Positions 41,231 to 43,648 of a DNA stretch of 64,000 bases are shown one piece after another. The stretch is from Chloroflexota bacterium (lineage in GTDB: Bacteria > Chloroflexota > UBA11872 > VXOZ01), in the NCBI GenBank assembly GCA_965221905.1, contig OZ244922.1:800001-864000 (forward strand), in the 5' to 3' direction. Made by a program: the position numbers and the translations under genes. The notes under the pieces are model-generated. The model made no database searches. It saw only the letters and a list, made by a program, of their open reading frames with translations, and was not told where the DNA came from. The stretch's first letter is position 1, and each line of letters begins with the position of its first letter.

Positions 41231-43648
41231 ATGGCACTAGCACCTTACACAGCGTCACCCGAAGAGACTCAATCTAATACGATTGAGGGGTTGATCGCGG
41301 CTGTATCTGCGTATAGCAGCGAAAATCCTGACCTCCGGAAGAAGGACCTCAACCGCGTCAGGCAGGCCTACGCGTTTGCCGCGCGCGCCCACGAGGGGCA
41401 ATTCCGCAAGTCCGGCGAGCCATTCATCCAGCATCCTCTCTGCACCGCCCTCCTTCTCTCGGAAATCCGCATGGACACGAGCACCATCTGCGCCGGTCTG
41501 CTCCATGACTGCGTGGAAGATACCGACGCTACCCTGGACGACATTCGCACGCAGTTTGGCGTCGACGTGGCGTTGCTCGTGGATGGCGTTACAAAGCTCA
41601 CCCAGCTCGACTTCCTGAATCTGGAAGATACCCAGGCCGAAAACCTACGCAAGATGTTCTTGGCCATGGCGCGGGACATTCGGGTTGTGATCGTAAAGCT
41701 CGCGGACCGTTTGCACAATATGCGCACGCTCGCGTACGTCGAGCCGGAGCGCCAGCGCCGCAAGGCCCAGGAGACTCTCGATATCTACGCCCCCTTGGCA
41801 AATCAGTTGGGGATGGGGCACTGGAAATGGCAGTTGGAAGATGCAGCATTTGCCGTGCTGCATCCAGACGTCTACAAGCAGATCGAATCTGTCTTGGCAG
41901 AGAGTTCCTTGACGCAAGACGAAGTCCTGCAAGATGCGGTGCAAACCCTGACGCGAGAGCTTGAGGAGGCCGGAATTCAGGGGGAGGTGAGCGGCAGGCC
42001 GAAGCACATTACGAGTACGTGGTTCAAGATGCAGCGCAAGAGTGTCGGCATCCAAGAGATTTACGATCTCATCGGCGTGCGCGTGGTTGTGAGCACGGTG
42101 CAGCAGTGCTACGGGGCACTTGGGCTTGTGCATACGTTGTGGAAACCGATTCCAGGCCAGTTCGACGACTATATCTCGGTTCCCAAATCCAATAACTACC
42201 GCTCGTTGCACACTGCCGTGATCGGGCCGCGCGGCCAGCCGGTCGAAGTGCAACTCCGAACCCAACACATGCACCAGGAAGCGGAGCTAGGCGTTGCCGC
42301 CCATTGGCGCTACAAGGAAGGGGAACGAGGCGCGAACGTCGATGAACGCTTGGCATGGCTGCGCCAGTTGATAACCTGGCAAGAAGAGCTTTCGAGTGCG
42401 CGCGAGTTCGTGGAGACGGTGAAAGCGGATATCTTCGAAGACCAGGTCTTCGTGTTTACACCTCGCGGAGACGTGAAGGACCTGCCGGCCGGCTCTACGC
42501 CCATTGACTTTGCATATCGCATTCATACTGACGTGGGACACCGTTGCCTTAGCGCTAAGGTCAACGGCCAAATAAAACCGCTCTATACGGAGCTTCAGAA
42601 TGGCGACGTGGTTGACATCCAGGTGAGCAAGGCGCCGAAAGGCCCCAGCCGCGACTGGATCAATATCGTCAAGAGCAGCCATACGCGCGAGAGGATTCGC
42701 CAGTGGTTCAAGAAGCAAGAGCGGGCCGAAAACGTCACGCGCGGGAGAGAGATGCTGGACAAGGAAATTCGACGGTTGGGTCAGGGTGATCTGAGCAGCG
42801 TCGATGAGGCCCGCGTCCGGACGCTGTGCAAGTCGTTCACGTTCAACTCCGCGGATGACCTCTTTGCGGCCATCGGATACGGCGCAATTTCCACGCAACA
42901 AGTGGTGATGAACTTGAGCCGATCGGGTGAGCAGCCTGCACAGACTGCATTCGAGCCGGAGACGTTGCCTGCGGAACCGCGTACCGACAAGACTACGGGC
43001 ACGGTACAGGTTATGGGTGAGGGCAACATGCTCACGCGCCTGGCGACCTGTTGCAAGCCGTTACCCGGCGATCACATCGTCGGCTACATTACGCGCGGAC
43101 GCGGCGTTACCGTTCACCGCCGTGACTGCCGCAACGTGCATAGCGCGAAGGACAAAGAGCGCTTGGTGCCGGTGGATTGGGGAGATCAGGTTATTAGTCA
43201 TGAGACCCGCAATTTGCCGCTCCAACTGGCACAGTGCTGTGGCCCTCAAACGAGTGACAAGATCAAAGGCTACGTTGTGGATGGCAGCGTGGAGGTGCAC
43301 CGCAGCGACTGCCGCCGCGTTCGCCAAAATGGGCCGCCAGGAATGCAGGTCAGAGTTTCCTGGTCGCGCACGAGCAAGCAACAGTCGCTCTACCCGGTAG
43401 CCCTGCGCGCCGAGTGTGTAGACAGACCGGGGCTCCTCCGCGACATTAGCGCGGTCGTGACGGAAGAGAAACTCAACATCAGTGCCGCGAACGTCAATAC
43501 GGACGGCGGCGCGGCGACGATCACGTTTACGGTTGAAGTTACCGGAGTGGGGAGACTGGCCGGCCTCATGGCCAAAATCGAGCGCGTCGGCGGCGTGGTC
43601 GGCGTGCAGCGTGATGTGCGTACCGATCGTCCTCAGCAAGGAAACTGA
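41231..43648 (+). CDS. relA: Bifunctional (p)ppGpp synthetase/hydrolase Rel (long RSH) with duplicated zinc-finger domain
   Basis: Intact HD hydrolase motifs (RKSGEPF..HP, LHDCVED), synthetase 'GRPKH', 'YRSLHT', 'EVQLRT', TGS 'DFAYRIHT', two CC...HxxxC modules, ACT 'DRPGLLRDI'. Confidence 0.95.
   Translation: [805 protein letters not shown]

Follow-up and report, generated by a model that had tools for sequence, protein, structure and literature searches.

The rel Gene and Its Domain Architecture

The 64,000-nucleotide stretch of Chloroflexota DNA analyzed here, referred to below as the window (assembly GCA_965221905.1, contig OZ244922.1, positions 800,001 to 864,000 of the forward strand), contains a rel gene (41231..43648, + strand) whose 805-aa product is a long RelA/SpoT homolog (RSH) with two zinc-finger domains (ZFDs) in tandem before its C-terminal ACT/RRM domain. 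The ZFD and RRM form the main ribosome anchor of Rel and RelA during starvation and, off the ribosome, help to lock the enzyme in its hydrolase-on state. A first-pass annotation, made by a model from the sequence alone, had proposed the tandem arrangement, and both modules, designated here ZFD1 and ZFD2, are indeed present in the open reading frame (ORF). As far as sampled, the tandem ZFD is confined to a single clade within an uncultured Chloroflexota class, and the doubling is apparently undescribed in the literature.

Pfam reports the domains of this protein in the canonical order HD_4, RelA_SpoT, TGS, RelA_AH_RIS, and ACT_4, all encoded on the + strand. The hydrolase (HD) domain, which includes H92-D93, spans residues 46–195 (41366..41815; HD_4, E 7.6e-53) and is followed by the SYNTH domain at residues 255–365 (41993..42325; RelA_SpoT, E 8.8e-41, and alignment to 6yxa_A), the TGS domain at residues 406–463 (42446..42619; TGS, E 2.5e-23), and the helical (AH) domain at residues 479–598 (42665..43024), for which the RelA_AH_RIS match extends over residues 479–633 (E 1.3e-10). 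ZFD1, the canonical zinc-finger/RIS/CC domain, occupies residues 599–650 (43025..43180) and aligns to the ZFD of solved Rel and RelA structures. It is joined by a linker of residues 651–660 (43181..43210), with a cross-family identity of 15–21% and predicted local distance difference test (pLDDT) values of 81 and 61 in 10-residue blocks of the model, to ZFD2, the diverged second zinc-finger domain, at residues 661–711 (43211..43363), which is recognized by BLASTP, TIGR00691, a dedicated profile, and its AlphaFold2 fold. The ACT/RRM domain completes the protein at residues 719–794 (43385..43612; ACT_4, E 1.4e-18; structural matches to the RelA ACT domain at Z 13–14). The end positions that the first-pass annotation gave for the two modules are exact, while its start positions lie one to two codons before the protein strings it quoted, which begin at R603 (43037) and Q665 (43223).

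The full-length protein scores 801 bits against TIGR00691, the model for long RSH proteins of the RelA/SpoT family (cut-off 499.2). Because its scores for the equivalog models of RelA (NF008124; 636.8 vs. a cut-off of 728) and SpoT (NF008303; 650.3 vs. 947) are both below threshold, it is assigned as a generic Rel rather than a proteobacterial RelA or SpoT. The H92-D93 hydrolase motif and D279 of the synthetase site, the latter equivalent to B. subtilis D264, are in place, each aligning at an offset of −15 to its B. subtilis counterpart. Judged by its sequence, the protein is a bifunctional-type long RSH, predicted to synthesize and hydrolyze the alarmone (p)ppGpp and to be activated by starved ribosomes. 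PF04607 has a single match in the 3.52-Mb single-contig genome, and since rel is the sole RelA_SpoT-domain gene, its product is presumably the housekeeping stringent factor of the organism. An additional family, PF28438.1, appears in the precomputed Pfam lists of all Rel matches; it may be a more recent model covering some of the C-terminal region.

Sequence and Fold of the Second Zinc-Finger Domain

The first-pass annotation held that both modules keep the CC...H-x3-C ligands, and these are found at C607, C608, H629, and C633 in ZFD1 and at C669, C670, H690, and C694 in ZFD2, with terminal tryptophans at W650 and W711, respectively. The T-R-G-R-G hairpin of ZFD1 spans residues 621–625, in which R624 is the equivalent of R619 in B. 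subtilis and R629 in E. coli; this register was counted from C602-C603 in the aligned B. subtilis sequence, where R619 is the second hairpin arginine. The C-C...H-x3-C motif is 27 aa long in ZFD1 and in B. subtilis Rel and 26 aa long in ZFD2, whose hairpin is one residue shorter than that of ZFD1 and contains no arginine, S686 standing at the position equivalent to R624.

The two modules are identical at 22 of 53 positions by BLASTP (42%, E 2e-11). In the DNA alignment roughly one column in two is identical, and the sole direct repeat between the modules is one 37-nt stretch, 73% identical, around the H-x3-C motif. This low residual similarity in DNA indicates an old duplication, in keeping with the earlier view that the copies are diverged rather than recent. 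Solved Rel and RelA chains match residues 36–652 and 718–794, leaving ~65 residues unmatched between them, and the insert between ZFD1 and the ACT domain (linker plus ZFD2) amounts to ~61 aa.

Standard domain models recognize this second module incompletely. Pfam reports a single RelA_AH_RIS stretch in the whole 805-aa protein, and even ZFD1 alone reaches only 16.6 bits against PF19296 (RelA_AH_RIS; cut-off 23.8), a model that combines the helical domain and RIS in 185 positions. Of the two RelA_RIS hits that the first-pass annotation had suggested as a check, the second did not appear; TIGR00691 matched the module, and a ZFD2 profile matched known ZFDs. With ZFD1 cut away, TIGR00691 positions 554–686 align to ZFD2 and the ACT domain, ZFD2 now covering the ZFD positions (554–611) of that model. 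A profile built from 38 distinct ZFD2 sequences only and searched against 177,635 PDB sequences returned six matches, all of them ZFDs of Rel, RelA, or SpoT (E 4e-12 to 1e-5). For annotation it matters that domain libraries report a single ZFD in this Rel.

Structure prediction, likewise suggested at the outset, bore out the identity of the module. Folded alone by AlphaFold2 from ZFD2 sequences only (pLDDT 93), ZFD2 repeats the secondary-structure order of ZFD1, with a strand, a β-hairpin, a short helix, and a strand around the metal site. Among 48,161 PDB representatives, only three match this model at Z ≥ 5, all over their ZFDs: B. subtilis Rel (6htq_x; Z 6.6, 58 aligned residues, 2.6 Å), M. 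smegmatis Rsh (8fr8_I; Z 6.2), and A. baumannii SpoT (7qpr_A; Z 5.8, 57 aligned residues). The best match to any other structure has a Z of 2.4. The first nine rows of a Foldseek search are also all Rel, RelA, or SpoT (TMq 0.65–0.71), with E values of only 5e-3 to 7e-2 for this 58-residue query. The profile and the predicted structure thus establish ZFD2 as an intact C-C-H-C zinc-finger domain of the RelA ZFD fold, with zinc binding predicted.

Distribution of the Tandem Arrangement

All 16 of the remaining species in the genus have the same 805-aa architecture. When the 98 species genomes available for the class were searched with a profile of the tandem region, tandem-level matches (129–219 bits over a span of ~350 nt) were separated from single-ZFD matches (76–111 bits). 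With families and genera given working labels (f and g, respectively), tandem-level matches were obtained in 67 of the 98 genomes, comprising f1 (17/17), f6 (38/38), and 12 genomes of f4 (genera g13–g16), and many of these 67 genomes are single-contig. Single-ZFD scores were obtained in f2 (1 genome), f3 (14), f5 (9), and genus g4 of f4 (7). Every tandem-level gene that was fetched contains both ZFD motifs, including nine of the 12 f4 genes.

Surveys beyond the class were samples rather than censuses. With the tandem profile at E ≤ 1e-29, no match was found in the 401 genomes sampled from the phylum of a Bacillota genome or in the 401 sampled from the phylum of a Pseudomonadota genome, and among ~355 Chloroflexota genomes outside the class a single one passed this threshold. 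This match (G201:C72:6672-6983, − strand, family f42; 106 bits over query positions 1–106) probably represents a single ZFD with an extended alignment, because its open frame is only 752 aa long. The spread that the first-pass annotation proposed to survey is thus confined in these samples to f1, f6, and part of f4.

A collection of 5.8 billion proteins contained 10 tandem proteins among the 120 matches listed, all of 795–805 aa or a fragment, and a scan of species genomes with the tandem-region alignment, which yielded at least 599 matching stretches, contained at least eight tandem genes among 80 loci, all Chloroflexota. In a library of 1.84 billion representatives, the best 150 of 5,889 matches included at least three tandem representatives at E ≤ 1e-30, all f6-like, and no f1 representative. 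The f1 proteins are probably missing because they are 55–60% identical to single-ZFD Rels and share a 50% cluster with them; clustering at 50% identity can therefore conceal the tandem-ZFD variant within single-ZFD clusters. The first-pass annotation had allowed that the duplication might prove both common and already described. It is not rare within its own lineage, and no description of a duplicated ZFD was found in full-text literature searches, which did not extend to the supplements of Atkinson 2011 and Jimmy 2020.

Three further observations concern related proteins. One genome of the same genus encodes a second long RSH of the single-ZFD type (G011:C1:3494561-3496657, − strand), 53% identical and lying within a 1,253-aa open frame, which could be a transferred paralog or a fusion; this genome has an estimated contamination of 6% yet is a single contig. 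A 617-aa fragmentary metagenome representative (P0127) carries a ZFD-ACT unit followed by a second, ~85%-similar ZFD-ACT unit, a repeat that differs in kind from the tandem ZFD and may reflect chimeric assembly. Another metagenome representative, of 133 aa (P0125), repeats a ZFD segment letter for letter, looks like an assembly artefact, and exemplifies the appearance of a false tandem ZFD.

Origin, Loss, and Selection

The history of ZFD2 was reconstructed from two trees. In the Rel tree, from which the ZFD2 columns were dropped (Bacillota root, 40 rows, 10 long or redundant rows left out), the topology is (f1,(f6,(g4,f4-tandem))), with supports of 94/91 for {f1,f6,f4}, 100/99 for f6+f4, and 100/99 for f4 including g4, with f2, f3, and f5, the families that have a single ZFD, lying outside this group. 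A tree of 73 individual modules, of limited resolution given its few columns, places 23 of 23 ZFD2 sequences on one side of one branch (SH-aLRT 90) and groups the single ZFD of g4 with the ZFD1/single type. Together the two trees point to one ancient duplication and one later loss in g4, whose genomes are small (1.9–2.4 Mb); as reconstructed, ZFD2 was gained once and lost once. On this view a ~61-aa "linker + ZFD" unit would have been duplicated in tandem within the one Rel gene of the ancestor of f1, f6, and f4, and selection would have preserved the extra copy from then on.

Within the genus (17 genes, 136 pairs), the ratio of nonsynonymous to synonymous substitution rates (dN/dS) is 0.019 for ZFD1, 0.094 for ZFD2, 0.086 for the linker, and 0.063 for the whole gene. 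Across families, identity is 60–63% for ZFD1, 37–39% for ZFD2, 34–41% for the ACT domain, and 33–40% for the AH domain. On these estimates ZFD2 is under purifying selection, maintained but freer than ZFD1.

All four zinc ligands are present in each of the 38 distinct ZFD2 sequences. Relative to the 20 columns conserved at ≥85% in 50 canonical ZFDs, ZFD1 retains all 20 and ZFD2 retains nine, namely the four ligands, the Pro after C-C, and an Ile, a Gly, a Val, and a Trp, residues that determine the fold through its metal site and core. It has lost P-G-D, I-T-R-G-x-G (where one residue is deleted), the Asn that follows the last Cys, and the "ERL" Arg. All 23 ZFD2 sequences have a gap in the column of R619/R629, and the neighboring canonical arginine is found in none of them; in the profile-to-PDB alignment, the place of the hairpin arginine is taken by Ser, Ala, Val, Thr, or Glu. 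ZFD2 also has conserved residues of its own, such as an L-P before strand 1.

Ribosome Contacts and Predicted Domain Arrangement

The published contacts of the ZFD give these residues their significance. E. coli R629 and B. subtilis R619 lie 3.5–5 Å from phosphates of the A-site finger (ASF), and the R-to-E change, which disrupts 70S binding in both species, and the change of C-C to A-A are used as mutants defective in that binding (PMC7058999). The ZFD has been placed on the tip of 23S helix H38 and on the uS19 sheet, with the ACT domain on H38 A896, H43, and uL16 (PMC5291266), and truncation of the ASF lowers activation 30- and 4-fold (PMC5829649). In a model of the enzyme off the ribosome, both the ZFD and the RRM use their rRNA-binding surfaces to dock on the Core (PMC9974481).

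An AlphaFold2 model of the ZFD1-ZFD2-ACT region (213 aa, 97-row alignment) has a mean pLDDT of 81.6. Ribosome-bound RelA (5iqr_8) superposes on it over 139 residues within model positions 1–202 (2.6 Å, Z 14.3), skipping ZFD2 as an insert while covering ZFD1 and ACT, and B. subtilis Rel (6htq_x) superposes over 143 residues (Z 13.6). Because the aligned length equals the size of a ZFD plus an RRM, ZFD1 and ACT are predicted to keep their canonical mutual arrangement, with ZFD2 looped out.

A Proposed Division of Roles and Its Alternatives

The reading favored here, with moderate confidence, is that the two modules have divided roles, in which ZFD1 together with ACT serves as the canonical clamp on the A-site finger and ZFD2 is a re-surfaced accessory module that tunes the switch. 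ZFD1 and ACT would still clamp the 23S A-site finger (H38) on starved ribosomes and would pack against the enzyme core off the ribosome, while ZFD2 would project from the ZFD1-ACT junction and shift the equilibrium of Rel between its ribosome-bound, synthetase-on state and its compact, hydrolase-on state, through its bulk or through a lineage-specific contact. Such a contact might be made with a neighboring ribosomal element, which is a tentative suggestion, or, with somewhat less probability, with another part of Rel; another partner is less probable again. ZFD2 itself would make no second canonical ASF contact, because it has lost the hairpin arginine and most other canonical surface residues. 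Since the arginine is missing and the length of the A-site finger is unchanged, the altered ribosome engagement anticipated by the first-pass annotation, if any, would not come about through a second canonical contact.

Several results weigh against this reading. The argument that ZFD2 does not contact the ASF depends on aligning the module to one mutated residue studied in other species, and the domain arrangement comes from the 213-aa AlphaFold2 model, with a predicted template modeling score (pTM) of 0.60. A Pfam scan of ZFD2 alone returned no family at E ≤ 1, RelA_AH_RIS included. Genus g4 lost ZFD2 while keeping Rel, so small genomes, at least, can do without the module. No sign of a partner for ZFD2 emerged from tests of H38, of positions in Rel, or of charge: the H38 tip is 35–36 nt long whether the lineage is tandem or single (readable in 14 of 17 sequences, the flank motifs being missing in two f5 and one f3 sequences); no reliably aligned Rel position outside ZFD2 tracks its presence, the only candidate being R800 in a poorly aligned tail, and R148, W198, S316, and A552 mark the clade yet persist in the g4 revertants; and the net charge of ZFD2 ranges from −5 to +6 with no consistent trend.

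Many of the same observations would fit a near-neutral structural passenger, a serious rival if a somewhat unlikely one, in which ZFD2 remained from the duplication as a folded domain that serves no specific function. It would have been retained as a stable, self-contained domain tolerated at the ZFD1-ACT junction, where partial decay would harm folding of the C-terminal region. The clean loss in g4, the loss of 11 of the 20 canonical conserved columns, a rate of evolution ~5 times that of ZFD1 within the genus, and the lack of a co-varying site or a conserved surface charge are all as expected of a passenger. A passenger would be less readily reconciled with retention in 67 of 98 species across three families with invariant zinc ligands, with a dN/dS far under neutrality, with a cross-family conservation equal to that of the functional ACT and helical domains, or with the residues conserved specifically in ZFD2. 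Rather unlikely is the possibility that ZFD2 gives Rel another docking site, of non-canonical type, either in the ribosomal intersubunit space or on a partner specific to the lineage. If this were true, Rel would read the state of the ribosome via two anchors, with an on/off threshold unlike that of all studied Rel and RelA enzymes, and the clade would constitute a natural experiment on how the geometry of the C-terminal domains controls the synthetase/hydrolase switch.

The remaining explanations have much lower probability. An improbable one is that the extra Cys3-His site acts as a switch sensitive to oxidation or zinc, through which a second stress signal would reach Rel; the metal site would be consistent with this as the only conserved surface-independent feature of ZFD2, but ZFD1 already has an identical site, nothing such as an extra Cys or a CXXC is conserved specifically in ZFD2, and no redox partner genes are evident beside rel. 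An exchange of roles, with ZFD2 as the working ASF binder and ZFD1 free for a new function, is very unlikely. ZFD2 does sit directly before ACT, the canonical position of a ZFD, and TIGR00691 aligns the two contiguously once ZFD1 is removed; however, ZFD1 is the module with every canonical conserved residue, R624 included, and with the lowest dN/dS of the gene, both hairpin arginines are absent from all 23 ZFD2 sequences, the model pairs ZFD1 rather than ZFD2 with ACT in a RelA-like arrangement, and it is a ZFD1-type module that g4 retained after the loss. An artefact of assembly or annotation, or a recent strain-specific duplication, has next to no probability: exact artefactual repeats do occur in metagenome proteins, as in P0125, but the copies described here are only ~50% identical in DNA and the architecture is found in 67 independent species genomes. 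Its recurrence throughout the genus and in two further families refutes both possibilities and upholds the claim of the first-pass annotation that this is no assembly duplication.

To our knowledge, all mechanistic work on these enzymes concerns proteins with one ZFD. A clade whose sole Rel has long carried an intact but re-surfaced ZFD2, together with one natural revertant genus, offers a ready-made comparison from which the influence of spacing and bulk at the ZFD-RRM junction on activation might be learned.

Genomic Surroundings

The neighbors of rel are recJ, a NUDIX gene, and genes for a GDSL hydrolase and an oxidoreductase. The recJ gene (DHH, DHHA1, RecJ_OB; 39466–41211 of the window, + strand) ends 19 nt before the rel start codon, and co-transcription of the two is likely because they lie on the same strand with this short gap. 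The NUDIX hydrolase, which has an N-terminal zinc ribbon, is encoded at 43725–44348 (− strand), convergent with the 3′ end of rel.

Outside the window, the 23S rRNA gene of the same genome spans 3,728 nt against a 2,925-position model. An insertion of ~800 nt was considered as a feature linked to H38 and rejected, since it proved to be a group I intron, located ~2.08 kb from the 5′ end of the gene (L143:2490-3150, on G000:C1; Rfam RF00028, 52.8 bits). The intron carries an ORF for a 208-aa LAGLIDADG endonuclease (L143:2526-3152, − strand; Pfam E 4.7e-22).

Comparison With Known Systems

Lineage-specific departures from the six-domain plan of long RSH proteins have been described before, and the exceptions reported in the available part of Atkinson et al. 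(2011; PMC3153485) are losses or truncations, such as a missing ACT domain or the truncated RshC, with no duplicated CC/ZFD mentioned there. The present protein differs from these in having gained a domain. It shares the HD-SYNTH-TGS-helical-ZFD-ACT order of the canonical bifunctional Rel enzymes of B. subtilis (6htq/6yxa) and M. smegmatis (Rsh, 8fr8), to whose chains it aligns at E 1e-189 to 1e-177; H92-D93 and D279 are intact, and ZFD1 and ACT superpose on the canonical ZFD and RRM. What sets it apart is the 61-aa insert with a second ZFD between ZFD1 and ACT, which accounts for a length of 805 aa compared with roughly 730–750 aa in single-ZFD relatives.

Compared with the ZFD of E. coli RelA bound to the A-site finger (5iqr, 5kps, 5l3p), ZFD2 has a common fold (Foldseek TMq 0.70 to 5iqr_8) and the same C-C-H-C ligands, but lacks the R629 equivalent, the T-R-G-x-G hairpin, P-G-D, the Asn, and the "ERL" Arg, and has the shorter hairpin noted above. 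The compact τ-state of A. baumannii SpoT (7qpr) provides a further point of reference, as the SpoT ZFD matches the fold of ZFD2 (Z 5.8). SpoT has one ZFD, unlike the Rel described here, and its structure offers a model for the enzyme off the ribosome, in which the ZFD and RRM turn their rRNA-binding surfaces onto the Core (PMC9974481).

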